The position numbers and the translations under genes are program-made. The notes below the pieces were generated by a model. That model saw nothing but the letters and a program-made list of their open reading frames with translations. It did not search any database and was not told where the DNA came from. This document shows, piece after piece, positions 4,801 through 64,000 of a DNA stretch of 64,000 nucleotides (position 1 is its first letter; each line of letters begins with the position of its first letter). Source of the stretch: a bacterium (lineage in GTDB: Bacteria > Bdellovibrionota_C > UBA2361 > CALJRW01); NCBI GenBank assembly GCA_031385045.1, contig JANNBC010000052.1, forward strand, positions 117,359 through 181,358, given 5' to 3'.

Positions 4801-5874
4801 ATGTCATTACTAAAGAGTGTTTGGCATTTAATTCGTGCGCACCATTGGTGGAACTATAAATTACCCTTAGCACTGATGGCGGCTTATGCATACGCCTCCA
4901 AAGAAAATATTTCTTTTAATACGATCATCTTTCCATCCTTGATTATTTTATTCTTAGGTTTTATTGCCGCAACATATGCCAGTCTAGTTAATGATTTTAT
5001 GGATTATGAGCAGGATCTTTTCTCAGGTAAAGAAACTCAGTTGATGAAGATTAAGCGGTCTAATCATTGGATAGTTTTTGCTACCTCTTTAATACTATCT
5101 ATTTATGCTGGGTATTTAATTCGTGCTTACCCAATCTCGCTTTTATGCTTTGCTACTATTATTTTAAACTTTTCACTTTATTCAATTCCACCATTTAGAC
5201 TAAAAGAAAAGGGGATCTGGGGGGTTATCTCAATTGCCCTGGGAGAACATTTTTTACCAGCATTACTGGCAATATTAATTATTAAAGAAGCGACTCACTC
5301 TCAGTCTTCGACAGTCTGGGTATTCTTCATGTTACTCTGGGCATTCACTTTTGGTATTAGAGGGATTCTTTGGCATCAACTAATGGATGAAAAAACAGAT
5401 CAGCTTGCAGGTTGTAATACAGCACTTGCATCTAACGAAAAGACGAAACTCTTAAAAATTGGGAGATTTATTATTTTCCCATTAGAATTAATTTCTTTTT
5501 TATATCTACTGACATCATCGGCAAGTTATCTAGCTTGGTTCTTTTTTATCTTTTATCTCCTGCTGGAGCTAATGAGGTATAAGTTTATGTCAGCTAATAT
5601 TATGATCTTAGCACCACTGCCCAATGCTAGGTTTTTCTTATTTGAATATTATCAAATATTTTTCCCATTATCTTTACTCTTAGCCTCTCTCTGGACTACT
5701 CCAAGTGCCATAATTTTGATCATCGCTTTTGTGCTGTTATTTTTCTCTCCAGTCTTTCAAGTTTATCATCATTGCCAGCATTTCTGGATGACTAAGGCTA
5801 GTTGGATTTATGTTCTTAGATTAAGTATTACTTCGAATAAGTTTTATCAGGGCATCCACAATTTTTTTAAATAA
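4801..5874 (+). CDS. UbiA-family membrane prenyltransferase
   Basis: NDFMDYEQD first Asp-rich motif, YSIPPFRLK, second motif QLMDEKTD, many TM helices. Confidence 0.8.
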   Translation: MSLLKSVWHLIRAHHWWNYKLPLALMAAYAYASKENISFNTIIFPSLIILFLGFIAATYASLVNDFMDYEQDLFSGKETQLMKIKRSNHWIVFATSLILSIYAGYLIRAYPISLLCFATIILNFSLYSIPPFRLKEKGIWGVISIALGEHFLPALLAILIIKEATHSQSSTVWVFFMLLWAFTFGIRGILWHQLMDEKTDQLAGCNTALASNEKTKLLKIGRFIIFPLELISFLYLLTSSASYLAWFFFIFYLLLELMRYKFMSANIMILAPLPNARFFLFEYYQIFFPLSLLLASLWTTPSAIILIIAFVLLFFSPVFQVYHHCQHFWMTKASWIYVLRLSITSNKFYQGIHNFFK

Positions 5875-55029: not shown

Positions 55030-55198
55030 TGATGCTGTGTTGTCATACCATATGCTTTTTAAAATTCAATCTAAGTAATCCAGACAACTTTAGTTTCTTT
55101 CTTAGCGATTAGTCTTGAGTAGTGATATTAATATAGTTGAGTAGAATTTCAATATTATTAGCTAGTTATATTTTGCATGAGTGGGTGGATAATAGATT

Positions 55199-55243
55199 TC
55201 CATTGACAACAAGTATCCATTTGGTATACTTGCTGTCAATGGA
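55199..55243 (+). promoter_or_regulatory. Sigma70 promoter (TTGACA 55203-55208, 16 bp, TATACT 55225-55230) inside an 18-bp inverted repeat
   Basis: tccattgacaacaagtat...atacttgctgtcaatgga (17/18 match) spans -35, -10 and the ATG at 55239. Confidence 0.8.
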
Positions 55244-55829
55244 GAATAGTGACATTAAAAAAATAAATCATTGGTCAAAAGATTTAAGAGGAGTCTTTAC
55301 TATCAGTGATCTAAAAGTACTTTTCGCAACCGACAGTGAAAAGTCAATTTTTAAAAAGATTGCTGTTATGATTAAAGAAAAAGTTTTAATCAAAGTTAAG
55401 CAAGGCCTCTACGCAATCCCGGAAGCGCAATTGATAGATCTTAGTAAACGAATAAATCCTAGTGCCTATGTTTCGATGGGTAGTATTCTAGCAGAGAAAT
55501 TAATTATTGGTTCGATTCCAGCTAGGAAATTACAAGCAGTCAAGATTGGGAGGCCACGAGTCTTTGTTACAAGTCTTGGCACTATTGAGCATTTAAGTTT
55601 AGCACCAAAACTTTTTTTTGGATTTAATGAATCTGAAGGATTAAAAAAAGCAACGCCAGAAAAGGCATTTTTAGATTGTTGTTATTTTTTCTATAAGGGA
55701 AGGGAACTTTCGTTCGATTTAGATACTGATGTTAATCATAACTTGTTAGATCAAAAAATAATTGCTGAGTACTTAACTAAGTACGATCAACGCTTTATTA
55801 CGTTTTATAAGAAAAAGTGGAGTAAATGA
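55239..55829 (+). CDS. AbiEi-like type IV TA antitoxin / transcriptional regulator (start re-assigned to ATG 55239)
   Basis: wHTH LIKVKQGLY, SAYVS, ATPEKAFLD; overlaps the AbiEii gene start. Confidence 0.82.
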   Translation: MENSDIKKINHWSKDLRGVFTISDLKVLFATDSEKSIFKKIAVMIKEKVLIKVKQGLYAIPEAQLIDLSKRINPSAYVSMGSILAEKLIIGSIPARKLQAVKIGRPRVFVTSLGTIEHLSLAPKLFFGFNESEGLKKATPEKAFLDCCYFFYKGRELSFDLDTDVNHNLLDQKIIAEYLTKYDQRFITFYKKKWSK

Positions 55830-56542
55830 TTAAGCAAGAGCAAGAACTATTAATCAGAGTGATTGATTTATTTGCTCAAAGGTTTAGTCAAAAAGCTATT
55901 TTGCGAGGTGGAATGGTTTTGCGCTTGCTTGGTTGTGAACGTTTAACTAATGATCTTGATTATATTTTTGTTCCCTATCGATCTAAGAATGAAATTGTCT
56001 CTGAAATTATTGCTGTATTAAATGAGATTCAAGATGCTGATATTGAGTATTCTATAAACTCAAAATGTTTACGAATAGTCTTAACGGTTATTGGTGTCTC
56101 TATTCAAATTGAAGTAAAAGTTGCAACAGAGTTATCTTATGAGATACTTTCTACCAAAGCCCTTGCGCAAGAGTATAATTATCCAACAAGGCTCATTCGA
56201 GTAATGGATTATTCTGTAGCATTCGCTCATAAGCTTGCTGCTTGGAATGAGCGGAGGTTGATTCGTGATGTTTATGATATCTGGTTTTTCTTAAAGTTGG
56301 GAGTTGTGCCTGATATTCAAGTACTAGAAAGGAGATTAGAAGAATGTAGCTATTCTAGATTGGTCAAAGATCAGGATAGATTCTTAGGTCAGGGAATCCC
56401 TCAATTCTATGAGTTTTTAATCACTAAAGTCCAAGCCATTTCGCAGGAGCAAGTCAATAATTCTCTAGGTGAATATCTTCCACTTGAGGAGCTGGCTGGA
56501 CTCGCTATGAAATTTAGGGCAGAGTTAGTAAAGTTAAAGTAA
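55826..56542 (+). CDS. AbiEii/AbiGii-family nucleotidyltransferase toxin
   Basis: LRGGMVL...RLTNDLDY, KLAA...RDVYD. Confidence 0.85.
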   Translation: MIKQEQELLIRVIDLFAQRFSQKAILRGGMVLRLLGCERLTNDLDYIFVPYRSKNEIVSEIIAVLNEIQDADIEYSINSKCLRIVLTVIGVSIQIEVKVATELSYEILSTKALAQEYNYPTRLIRVMDYSVAFAHKLAAWNERRLIRDVYDIWFFLKLGVVPDIQVLERRLEECSYSRLVKDQDRFLGQGIPQFYEFLITKVQAISQEQVNNSLGEYLPLEELAGLAMKFRAELVKLK

Positions 56543-56543
56543 G

Positions 56544-57026
56544 ATGAATAAACCAACCGAAAAAAAAGAAAAACCAATTAAAGTAGTCGCCTTAAACAAA
56601 AAGGCTAAGTTCGAGTACCATTTCATCGAAACTTTTGAAGTTGGAATTGTCTTGACTGGGGATGAAATTAAATCTATCCGCGCCAATCAAATTACTTTGA
56701 CCGAAGCTTATGTTCGAGCGATTGAAGGTGAGCTATTCTTAATTGGTGCACACATTGCCCCGTATTCTCATAGTTCAGCTAGAGAGTATAATCCTACTCG
56801 TACTCGAAAGTTATTAATGCAAAAAAAACAAATTATTAAATTACAAGTTCAAGTAAATCAAAAAGGCTTAACAATTGTGCCTTCTCAACTTTACTTAAAG
56901 GGAAGTTTAGCCAAACTAACAATTGCTTTGGCTAAAGGTAAAGATGCTCCTGATAAACGACGAACTGTCCAAGACAGGGAGCTAAAGAAAAAAGCAGAAC
57001 GCGCAGTTAAGATGCAAAGAGGCTAA
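56544..57026 (+). CDS. smpB: SsrA-binding protein
   Basis: NKKAKFEY, GIVLTGDEIKSIR, RTRKLL, AKGK..PDKR. Confidence 0.96.
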   Translation: MNKPTEKKEKPIKVVALNKKAKFEYHFIETFEVGIVLTGDEIKSIRANQITLTEAYVRAIEGELFLIGAHIAPYSHSSAREYNPTRTRKLLMQKKQIIKLQVQVNQKGLTIVPSQLYLKGSLAKLTIALAKGKDAPDKRRTVQDRELKKKAERAVKMQRG

Positions 57027-57039
57027 GTCTTTAAGCTAT

Positions 57040-59133
57040 TTAGGATGCTGCTAATTCTTCACGAATTATTTCTTGTTTAGCAGGCTTCGACCATTCGTTC
57101 AGCCTAGATTTCCAATCATTTAGAAAATCAACTACCTCCGGCTGAAGCTTATTCAGATTACTATCTAAAAAAGTTGTTATACTTCCAATATAATGATTGT
57201 TTAAGACTGTTAGAGTTTTAATCCAACCTTCAATCCCTAATTCATCTTGTTTCCAAGGGTGAATTAAATTTTCTCGTATCGAGTTATTTCCAATTTTTAG
57301 CTCCCTTGGGACTTTCCCAAGAAGTGGATGTCCAGCAGAGATTAAATTCTCGGGAGCAAGCATCTTTTCTGAGTTTTTGGGGTTAGCCAGGAGTAATTCT
57401 AAAACATTTAATCCAGCAAACTCTAACTCCGTAATTGCTCCAACATTTTGACTAGCGGTAGAAACAAACTTTACTCCGCTCTGACCCATCGCCTGATAAA
57501 CATCGAATAGTTTTTGATAAACTGGAGCAAATGCTTCTGGAATAATAAATCCACTCTCTGATCCAGGACCTTCTCCTGTAATCTGAGAGTGTGACTGCGC
57601 CCCTCCAATACTTGGATTTCCTTTAGTGGCTCTTGGCAAATCTAAATTAAGCAGTGTGGCGATGTCAGTGTCCAGGACGTGCAGTAATCCTGCACAGAGA
57701 CCAGGCGCATCTTCACTCCACTGACTACACCTCATTCCAATGTTTAAAACATGAACATCGATTCTTCCTGTGAAGCGACCATCAGGAATGAGGTTTGTAG
57801 GAAAAAAGATTCGGGGATTAGACTCAAACTGGGTGATATCAACTCTGCCACCCAATTCAAATTTAGGATAGTTCATATAAACAACGTCTGAATCTTTAGA
57901 CCGATTAAGCATTGCATCGACTAAATCAATACTAGCTTGTGTATCAGGCCTTAGAAATAGCGCCTGATTTTCAATATTTACTCCAGGCACTTCATTATTT
58001 TCTGCAGTAACCATAAAGATATCATCACCTGCTGGTTCAATCTGTGTCTTCCGAAGTTGCGCCATTAAATTTCCAAAGTTAAATGGCTTACTAAAAACTT
58101 TGGACATCTCTTCTTTAAAAGACTTTTTCATTTCTCTAATCTTTGGAGTAGTAAACGCAAGTTCTTTGTAATGTGAGAGGGCATAGATTAAATTAGACCA
58201 AGTTTCTGTTTTTCCAGCACCAGAAGCCCCTGTAGTAATCAGTCCTAGCTCTCCTGTCTTTGTTTTAATGCAAATTGCTGAGGCATGTAAGGGAAAGCGA
58301 TTCTCAGCTCCATAGGCTGCCGCATAAATAATTGCTGCATAGAGTGCCTTTTTCATTGCGGGCCCCGGATATTCTAAGTCCGCAATCATTATTGGAAATG
58401 TATCAACATCAAAGTGAGTTACTACCTGAGCAAAATGTTTTTTCGGATCGAAACCTGCTGTGCGACAAGATGCTTGATGATCTTTAGTTAAAATTGGATC
58501 GACAATAATTGCCCCAATCACTTTTTGATTTTCAAATAACTGATCTCGATAATCATCCACTATGCCTTGCAACATTCCACCAGCATGTAATAAGTAAGCT
58601 GATTCTTTTGGTAAGATCACGGCTATCGAGGTGCCATCAAAATTTGTTTTCAGTAGCCCTGTTACTAACTGCTCTTCAGGTGCTAGAACCTTTGATTCAT
58701 TAATTCTACGAATAATATCGGCACAATATGCTTGTGCCGAATTTGTAAAATCTTTACCAAATCTTTCTTGATACGATCTACTGCCCGCAATTTCTGGTCC
58801 ATTAATTGATGTCACGGCATCAGGATTTCTAGATGTTTGTCCAGGAGGAAAGGAGAGGGCTAGGTGTCCATCCATCAGGGGTGTTATGGTAACTCCTGAG
58901 GAATTTGTAAACGGAGTCATCCTGCCATTAGTTAGTTCTGCAACTAAGTCTCGGGTATCTTTTAAACTAAAGACATGATGGCTATTATTAATAGTCTGCT
59001 CAATCACAGCCCTCAATAATAACGGGGTAATTCCTTGAATACCAAGAGACTCATCAAGTATTTGGTCATTGTTTGGTGCTAATAATGGAGAAATTGGGTC
59101 AAAAGCTGTATCGCTAGACATAATCTCGTACAA
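57040..59133 (-). CDS. PEPCK/HPr-kinase-like P-loop protein (resembles DUF4914)
   Basis: YPGPAMKK, LHAS, GASGAGKTE (Walker A), GDD, NPR: the PEPCK-type motif order. Confidence 0.65.
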   Translation of the reverse strand: MYEIMSSDTAFDPISPLLAPNNDQILDESLGIQGITPLLLRAVIEQTINNSHHVFSLKDTRDLVAELTNGRMTPFTNSSGVTITPLMDGHLALSFPPGQTSRNPDAVTSINGPEIAGSRSYQERFGKDFTNSAQAYCADIIRRINESKVLAPEEQLVTGLLKTNFDGTSIAVILPKESAYLLHAGGMLQGIVDDYRDQLFENQKVIGAIIVDPILTKDHQASCRTAGFDPKKHFAQVVTHFDVDTFPIMIADLEYPGPAMKKALYAAIIYAAAYGAENRFPLHASAICIKTKTGELGLITTGASGAGKTETWSNLIYALSHYKELAFTTPKIREMKKSFKEEMSKVFSKPFNFGNLMAQLRKTQIEPAGDDIFMVTAENNEVPGVNIENQALFLRPDTQASIDLVDAMLNRSKDSDVVYMNYPKFELGGRVDITQFESNPRIFFPTNLIPDGRFTGRIDVHVLNIGMRCSQWSEDAPGLCAGLLHVLDTDIATLLNLDLPRATKGNPSIGGAQSHSQITGEGPGSESGFIIPEAFAPVYQKLFDVYQAMGQSGVKFVSTASQNVGAITELEFAGLNVLELLLANPKNSEKMLAPENLISAGHPLLGKVPRELKIGNNSIRENLIHPWKQDELGIEGWIKTLTVLNNHYIGSITTFLDSNLNKLQPEVVDFLNDWKSRLNEWSKPAKQEIIREELAAS

Positions 59134-63291: not shown

Positions 63292-63311
63292 TCAATAGAT
63301 TAGCTGAGTTG

Positions 63312-63349
63312 AAGCCCTGTATATCTGCAAAGGTATACAGGGCTTTTTT
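63312..63349 (+). terminator. Rho-independent terminator
   Basis: aagccctgtatatct-gcaa-aggtatacagggctt followed by a T-run. Confidence 0.85.
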
Positions 63350-63354
63350 ATTTG

Positions 63355-63363
63355 TGCTATACT
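63355..63363 (+). promoter_or_regulatory. Extended -10 element (TGcTATACT) upstream of the ncRNA array
   Basis: TGnTATAAT-like match just after a terminator and about 50 nt before unit 1. Confidence 0.5.
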
Positions 63364-63412: not shown

Positions 63413-64000
63413 GGGGGTGTCCATTCTGCGTCGCTAAAGCTATGCAGAATGAAGGTTTCGACTGGATTCAGAGATTAAGCCTGCCTCGAGTTTAAAGTGG
63501 CGATAAATTTAATTGTCAGTCTTCGACTGCCAATTAAATTTAAATCCAACTAGTGCTAATTAAGATTTTAGCTTTGCAAAGATTGCGCCGGCTGGCTCAG
63601 TCTTCAAATCGTTAAGATTTAGAATGTGCTAGCAATATTTAAGTTATTAACATCGGGGGTGTCCAGGTTTCGACTGGATTTGAAGACTTTAATCATGCCT
63701 CGAGCATAAAGTGGTGATAAATTTAGTAGTAAGTCCATGACTTCCTACTAAATTTAAACCCAACCTAGTTCTAATCACGATTTTTACTGTGCTGACATCG
63801 ATCGGGCAGGATAAAATCTCTGAATCGTTAAGATTCTGATTCTTACTAGCAAAGTTTAAGTTATTAACATCGGGGGTGTCCAGGTTTCGACTGGATTCAG
63901 AGATTAAGCCTGCCTCGAGTTTAAAGTGGCGATAAATTTAATTGTCAGTCTTCGACTGCCAATTAAATTTAAATCCAACTAGTGCTAATTAAGATTTTAG
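63413..64000 (+). ncRNA. Tandem array of ~217-nt structured RNA units with tmRNA-like 5' ends (A 63413, B 63655, A 63872; truncated by the window)
   Basis: Each unit starts GGGGGTGTCCA..GGTTTCGACTGGATT...TGCCTCGAG. Units share a covarying 39-nt hairpin, and the two junctions share an identical 43 nt. No long ORF. Confidence 0.75.

Follow-up and report, generated by a model that had tools for sequence, protein, structure and literature searches.

A stretch of 64,000 nucleotides (nt) from a bacterium assigned to Bdellovibrionota_C (assembly GCA_031385045.1, contig JANNBC010000052.1, positions 117,359 to 181,358; hereafter the window) ends in an array of units of about 215 nt, each of which opens with a copy of the 5′ end of the gene for transfer-messenger RNA (tmRNA), continues in a body that folds a 39-nt hairpin (nt 62-102 of the unit), and carries behind it a short inverted copy of the tmRNA segment that follows. 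The unit is conserved between two species, its paired segments covary, its layout recurs at other genes and its copy number differs between genomes. We consider it probable that the unit is a mirror-image form of the tRNA-linked repeats (TLRs), standing at the 5′ end of the tmRNA gene and kept there by selection. What the fold does is more doubtful; recombination through folded DNA is a possible role, which we put forward tentatively, and on balance we lean slightly towards the whole explanation, in which the mirror-image TLR and this mechanism are taken together.

Repeat units at the front of the ssrA locus

The right end of the window is also the end of contig C2 of this genome (G000), and the full tmRNA gene lies on a separate contig, C33. 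In a relative of the same genus (G001; other G numbers denote further genomes of the order), one homologous unit follows the promoter region and is itself directly followed by the full tmRNA gene. Since the gene order in G001 is that of the window, including a gene that we take from its protein sequence to be smpB, the array can be read as the front of the ssrA locus, the adjacency to the gene in G000 being deduced from synteny. The two units of the window, A and B, and the unit of G001 are the only three sequences of this family in our data. Their direct copy of the host tmRNA 5′ end covers nt 1-36 in B; in A it is split and comprises nt 1-26, and in G001 it comprises nt 4-31. In both genomes it matches the genome's own variant of the gene. 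The array contains no open reading frame (ORF) of 50 or more amino acids, and both the 39-nt hairpin and the unit body match only this locus in the genome and are thus not dispersed.

One copy is present in G001, at least two in G000, and at least three in G037. Two orders can be considered for G000, A-B-A-gene and A-B-gene; that the inverted copy of B matches A fits the former, and it also fits nested pairing with the first A. In the contigs of a sequencing run (X1) that may be the source sample, about 90% of which was read, A was seen once and no piece spanned the B-to-A junction; contigs drop variants, however, and depth does not give copy number, so that this is no evidence either way.

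Paired segments and their covariation

Within each unit, a 12-nt segment repeats in inverted form nt 23-34 of whichever unit or gene comes after it; in G000 this segment ends 44-45 nt upstream of the following +1 position. The inverted copy of A matches B and the gene, that of B matches A, and that of the G001 unit matches its own gene, so that all 12 pairs can form at each of the three junctions. Five of these pairs are altered on both sides, and the single one-sided change turns C-G into U-G on the transcribed strand. RNAalifold predicted 9 of the 12 long-range pairs unprompted, and among 20,000 windows of 150 nt drawn at random from the genome only 7 contained a comparable 12-nt match. Of the 356 positions of the tmRNA gene, 15 differ between G000 and G001; four of these cluster at nt 27-31, and at each of the four the inverted copy agrees with its own gene. 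At nt 27, after GATT, the G000 gene has T, where 52 of the 55 other genes fitting this pattern have C (14 more did not fit); it looks as if the 5′ segment of the gene had been overwritten. The covariation of the inverted copy, which the initial annotation had missed, is stronger than that of the hairpin, which had been reported first. When hairpin and long-range helix were counted together, the pair changes on both sides exceeded those in 500 of 500 shuffles and in all slid controls, a result that should not be read as a probability because the three sequences are kin and the structure was derived from them.

The hairpin itself is real, and it is one helix of a small, folded and conserved non-coding module in front of the tmRNA gene. 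The three 39-nt sequences described in the initial annotation (63504-63542, 63718-63756 and 63933-63971) agree letter for letter with the window at these coordinates, and each folds into a pair of 18-nt arms with 17 base pairs, one T·C mismatch and a 3-nt loop. As had been claimed, A and B differ at 3 of the 17 pairs on both sides and at none on one side (columns 62:85, 64:83 and 67:80); if the three substitutions in each arm were independent, the chance that all of them would be partnered and complementary is about 5e-5. The two A hairpins are, however, one sequence: the second lies within the final 129 bases of contig C2, the last 119 of which exactly repeat 63453-63571, so that the second A is uninformative and the comparison is that of A with B only. 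In G001 the arms are identical to those of A at 35 of 36 positions; one of the three covarying pairs is replaced by an A·A mismatch, and the loop has 4 nt. The T·C mismatch keeps its place in all three hairpins (A, B and G001), whereas the constant loop size given in the initial annotation fails in G001, and the stem is not free of unpaired change, having one uncompensated substitution there.

Hairpins of at least 18 base pairs with at most one mismatch occur at five places in the window (eight centres) and at none in each of five shuffles. Two further hairpins of this size lie at about 13900 and 46235. The minus strand of hairpin A (63504-63542) closes with a C-GAA-G triloop, a type that is unusually stable in single-stranded DNA; this loop is not kept in B or G001.

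Conservation of the unit

Unit A and the G001 unit are identical at 168 of 205 positions (82%), and at 130 of 165 outside the hairpin, whereas fourfold-degenerate sites of eight nearby orthologous genes, our neutral yardstick, are identical between the two genomes at 323 of 802 (40%). The unit is thus not decaying, and it is chiefly on this ground that the earlier view of B as something other than a neutrally decaying copy holds. That this identity reflects selection, rather than a recent exchange of the locus between G000 and G001, seems probable and belongs to the same judgement as the identity of the unit as a mirror-image TLR. The initial interpretation as a whole is partly supported: three compensatory pairs are insufficient by themselves as evidence of selection on structure, because template switching between the arms of an inverted repeat gives the same pattern, correcting imperfect inverted repeats and making them look conserved (PMC5941160). 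The T·C mismatch kept in three hairpins argues against template switching as the only cause.

Related modules at other tRNA and tmRNA genes

We surveyed 91 genomes of the order, 68 of which gave a tmRNA match. Besides G000, 69 loci were available (66 from the tmRNA matches and 3 partial genes found by pattern), and two with less than 300 nt of upstream sequence were dropped. Counting at least 12 nt of the tmRNA 5′ end within 700 nt upstream, we found a direct copy before 13 of the 67 remaining loci, at 100-217 nt and in 8 families; five of the 13 are from one genus and two from another. The controls gave 0 of 67 downstream of the gene and 0 of 67 for a mid-gene segment. Exact inverted copies of 10 nt or more were sought at 68 loci with 150 nt upstream, and 5 had one (10-16 nt), all of them among the 13, while the other 55 had none longer than 8 nt. 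The inverted copies in G001, G006, G007, G025 and G090 extend into gene bases that are missing from the direct copy.

The other 8 of the 13 loci have tandem units with short palindromic repeats. A second class of 5′ units (L040, L041, L042, L043, L093, L107, L060 and L077) is 100-185 nt long, reaches at least three copies and lacks the inverted copy. These units are built of short palindromic repeats that also occur behind tmRNA genes, and ARAGORN calls several of them as 5′-extended tmRNAs. A contig end of G008 (L014) holds a second tmRNA 5′ end, diverged in sequence and equipped with a promoter-like region of its own.

Similar modules stand behind genes in G000, where 5 of 35 tRNA and tmRNA genes are followed by 13-18 nt that repeat the T-arm region in inverted form, each such copy matching its own host gene, and in 4 of these 5 a 14-17-nt direct copy of the 3′ end comes after the inverted one. 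Upstream of the gene for tRNA-Asp there is, in addition, a module that combines 35 nt copied directly from the 5′ end of the gene with a hairpin and an inverted copy that is imperfect. In G001, where 30 of 37 tRNA loci with 31 genes were surveyed, the Asp modules and the module behind tRNA-Arg(ACG) recur. Read away from the gene, the 3′ modules show an inverted copy, a spacer, an inner direct copy, a small hairpin and a terminal direct copy, and the promoter-proximal 5′ units of G000, G006, G007 and G090 show the same order mirrored, the small hairpin being an insertion after nt 8-10. In unit A this insertion is 30 nt long and related to a palindrome in the tRNA-Arg 3′ module, in reverse orientation; the palindrome that it resembles has a 12-nt core found 20 times. 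G006, G007 and G090 have other hairpins at the same position.

The tRNA-Asp gene is thus flanked by modules on both sides (around 110000-110330 of contig C54 in G000; L115 in G001), the downstream one being of the inverted-plus-direct kind. A tRNA-Arg(TCG) gene of G001 (L123) has a 29-nt direct copy of its own 5′ end within 220 nt upstream. A tRNA-Met gene of G000 near 8317-8391 of contig C60 has an atypical T-loop; its downstream inverted copy follows the atypical letters, and the arrangement is repeated in tandem. The tmRNA gene at 5755-6110 of C33 is trailed by two 104-nt 3′ modules.

The unit body had no match in 50,697 phage and 72,556 plasmid records, and we rejected a phage or plasmid origin on this basis. 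Three pattern scans of viral contigs gave 0, 0 and 4 loci, the four being 21-22-nt matches without a tmRNA, and a metagenome scan gave two isolated matches of 22-25 nt. Scanning a genome collection for a doubled 5′ motif at 185-215-nt spacing returned five loci, two linked to tmRNA (Bdellovibrionota, Bdellovibrionales) and three unrelated repeats. Among 96 genomes of the phylum, a pattern search found no close pair in the 23 outside the order, only 8 of which matched the pattern.

Comparison with tRNA-linked repeats and other elements

TLRs have been known since 1978. Those of E. coli (the 178-bp repeats of tyrT/tyrV, RtT RNA, and rrA/rrB/rrF) lie behind tRNA and 5S genes in one to five copies, each closing with 18-19 bp that repeat the 3′ end of the gene, and have no function known as of 2021 in the account of PMC8144298. 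Like them, the units of the window are non-coding, folded, of a length within 100-220 nt and arranged in one to five tandem copies, and they carry an exact copy of the terminus of the adjacent stable-RNA gene. They also stand beside a stable-RNA gene, presumably within its transcription unit, the adjacency being seen in G001 and deduced from synteny in G000. We further observed that in the tyrT locus of E. coli the tyrV repeat carries, 59 nt past the gene, the T-arm region in inverted form together with a split direct copy, which is the layout of the 3′ modules of G000; an inverted copy is thus shared by tyrV and the units of the window. The difference is one of side: the described TLRs stand behind the gene and copy its last 18-19 bp, whereas the units of the window precede it and repeat 26-36 nt from the start of tmRNA. 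Because they lack the downstream position and the copied 3′ end, which the other modules of G000 do have, they are a variant of the TLRs and not members in the strict sense; and as those 3′ modules are TLR-like, the units of the window are their 5′ mirror image. The RtT and rrB families of Rfam gave no match to the units at gathering score or at E values up to 5. In the literature, mostly open-access papers taken without supplements (those of PMC8144298 may cover the inverted copy), we found no 5′-end TLRs and no inverted copies upstream of tmRNA.

Three other systems share some of these features. Genomic islands catalogued by Islander include 159 of 3919 with a displaced 5′ fragment of the tRNA gene (PMC4383910); as here, a 5′ fragment stands upstream of the restored gene in the same orientation, tandem arrays occur and tmRNA is a favoured target, but those islands are 2-200 kb long and encode a tyrosine integrase, whereas our units are about 215 nt, non-coding and equipped with an inverted copy of the target. 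In passages of PMC4131195 and PMC9897764, gene fragments are treated only as island products or CRISPR spacers. Ssn nucleases of the GIY-YIG family cut hairpin repeats (SRM/NTS) in single-stranded DNA (PMC11893778), so that short hairpin repeats are treated as single-stranded DNA by a small nuclease acting in trans; the main text of that paper does not mention tRNA or tmRNA, and unlike Ssn/SRM or REP/RAYT repeats the 39-nt hairpin is not a dispersed multi-copy family. At the start of C33, the tmRNA 3′ piece is immediately followed by a partial GIY-YIG match. Correction of quasi-palindromes (PMC5941160) shares with the hairpin the paired changes in both arms and leaves unexplained the kept mismatch, the conservation outside the arms and the recurring layout.

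A possible recombination mechanism

If the fold acts in DNA, the following course can be considered. The module would enter by recombination within about the first 36 nt of the gene, supplying the gene with a new 5′ segment and leaving the old one upstream. As the inverted copy is complementary to the supplied segment, a single-stranded module could by folding reproduce the target site as a short duplex, a recombinase or nuclease provided in trans may act on this duplex, and the 39-nt hairpin would be kept as part of this fold. Folding of single-stranded DNA into a target duplex is known from integron attC sites and from attP of CTX phage. A 5′ segment supplied by the module would account for the reach of the inverted copy into bases missing from the displaced copy, and would explain why nt 27 is atypical in the G000 gene.

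Several observations weigh against this explanation. The covariation counts rest on few events in three sequences that are kin and not independent, and an inverted copy is missing from 8 of the 13 loci that have a direct one. Module bodies are mostly unrelated between families, and the body of the present unit is confined to G000 and G001, the 89 other genomes of the order giving only chance-level matches of 22-33 nt. The unit occupies an orthologous place in two species whose synonymous sites are saturated, which fits long residence better than active mobility. No recombinase gene stands beside the array, all four tyrosine-recombinase matches of G000 being on other contigs; no circular or single-stranded intermediate was seen; and the folding z-scores favour neither strand, nor DNA over RNA.

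A more general proposal is that TLRs are non-autonomous mobile modules which carry a replacement copy of a tRNA or tmRNA end and its complement, make their own target duplex by folding, can be redirected to a different gene or to the opposite end of one by rewriting both segments, and overwrite the end of the host gene (here tmRNA nt 27-31); this we regard as speculative and rather unlikely. If the module does rewrite the 5′ segment, it would offer mobile DNA a route to replace the end of an essential RNA gene. The three junctions described here, four more genomes and five more genes of G000 provide natural pairs of inverted copy and target.

Alternative explanations

A serious rival, although we think it unlikely, is that the fold works in RNA, the units serving as 5′ leader of pre-tmRNA. 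On this view the helix-2a strand of the gene would be held by the inverted copy, either by pairing with it for a time or to let the upstream copy make the acceptor stem of a 5′-extended form, and the released leader may be a small RNA like RtT or RrB of E. coli. A promoter-like site upstream (six such sites were found against 2.1 expected in shuffles) and the lack of any terminator-like site within the array agree with this, and the site presumably drives the units and tmRNA as one precursor. In G006, G007 and G025, pairing of 16-22 bp between leader and gene, with loss of the gene's own acceptor stem, is predicted, and the sole one-sided change of the long-range helix leads from C-G to U-G on the transcribed strand. 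E. coli TLRs are transcribed and processed, and three of them bind Hfq and CsrA in vitro (PMC8144298). However, equilibrium folding of leader plus tmRNA gave at most 0.8 expected pairs between inverted copy and gene in G000 and G001, and 54 of 67 relatives do without a 5′ copy. In predicted folds, 8 of 9 5′ modules have more G·U pairs on the transcribed strand and 4 of 5 3′ modules have more on the other strand, a mirrored pattern that a role at the transcript level does not predict, though it is confounded by base composition. A fold of the extended isoform was tried for G000 and G001 and dropped, the inverted copy not pairing with the gene. The 5′ mirror-image form helps to separate the two readings: a layout that is mirrored when the gene end changes speaks for a DNA-level process at the ends of tRNA genes, and a role as leader RNA makes specific predictions on the folding of pre-tmRNA.

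It is improbable, in our view, that the units are a neutral by-product, in which a local duplication arose at a recombination-prone gene end and template switching and gene conversion matched the arms with no selection on structure. The imitation of conservation by template switching (PMC5941160), the uncompensated stem change in G001, and direct copies matching each host gene, as conversion would give, are all in its favour. This explanation is already strained by the conservation outside the arms (130 of 165 against 40% at fourfold sites); moreover, correction should erase the T·C mismatch that persists in all three hairpins, and the layout is found again at different genes, with bodies that are unrelated.

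Least probable of all is a diverged duplicate of the 5′ 200 nt or so of tmRNA, in which the hairpin would derive from pseudoknot 1 and the beginning of the tag frame, for which short in-register look-alikes near tmRNA nt 40-52 and the tag-frame end, and weak scores of the Rfam tmRNA family (RF00023) at the beginning of the units (11.5 and 15.9 bits, against a gathering score of 47), can be cited, and against which alignments of the three unit bodies to tmRNA nt 38-210, local and global, stayed within the range of 1000 shuffles (z -0.5 to 1.1). Past the first 26-36 nt the unit has no significant similarity to tmRNA, ARAGORN and Rfam made no tmRNA call in the window, and we did not assign the units to RF00023, as they have no tag frame and no 3′ end, where that family shows a tRNA-like domain with both ends, a tag frame and a pseudoknot ring. 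The suggestion in the initial annotation that the hairpin takes the place of pseudoknot 1 is accordingly not supported: nt 62-102 of the unit overlap only partially, and in position only, with pseudoknot 1 at about nt 49-80 and the resume codon at nt 92.

Features of the window and neighbouring genes

Table 1. Features of the array and its surroundings, in window coordinates.
Feature	Position	Strand	Remarks
smpB-like gene, marks the ssrA locus	56544..57026	+	same gene order in G001 leads to the unit and the full tmRNA gene
Terminator-like hairpin behind the upstream gene	63311..63354	+	intrinsic-terminator-like; similar hairpin in G001
Promoter-like site, extended -10	63334..63363	+	consensus match only; -10 region kept in G001
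Unit A, first copy, from the direct copy of tmRNA nt 1-26 through structured body and inverted copy to the linker	63413..63654	+	folding z -3.9
Palindromic 30-nt insertion splitting the tmRNA copy between nt 10 and 11	63423..63452	+	sequence comparison
39-nt hairpin of unit A	63504..63542	+	covariation, folding
Inverted copy of nt 23-34 of unit B and the tmRNA gene	63599..63610	+	partner 63677-63688
6-nt leader and nt 1-36	63649..63690	+	identical to the tmRNA gene on C33
Unit B	63655..63871	+	157/207 identical to A; folding z -2.6
39-nt hairpin of unit B	63718..63756	+	covariation, folding
Inverted copy of unit A nt 23-34, not of the tmRNA gene	63815..63826	+	partners 63894-63905 and 63465-63476
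Second copy of unit A without the 30-nt insertion, cut by the contig end	63872..64000	+	hairpin 63933-63971

Further genes around smpB differ between the two genomes. Directly before it, at 55137-56542 of the window, stands a two-gene cassette that we take to resemble a type IV toxin-antitoxin pair, and G001 has a different gene there. Between smpB and a large downstream ORF, the window has a minus-strand ORF of 697 amino acids with a P-loop motif (57040-59133), which is absent there in G001.

On C33, positions 1-104 are the last 104 nt of a second tmRNA copy, so that tmRNA apparently occurs twice in G000 (C33 1-104 and 5755-6110), around a stretch of 5.6 kb. This stretch contains a partial GIY-YIG gene, a 3′ fragment at 5470-5490 and a toxin-antitoxin-like gene pair, which presumably resembles an AbiEi/AbiEii module.
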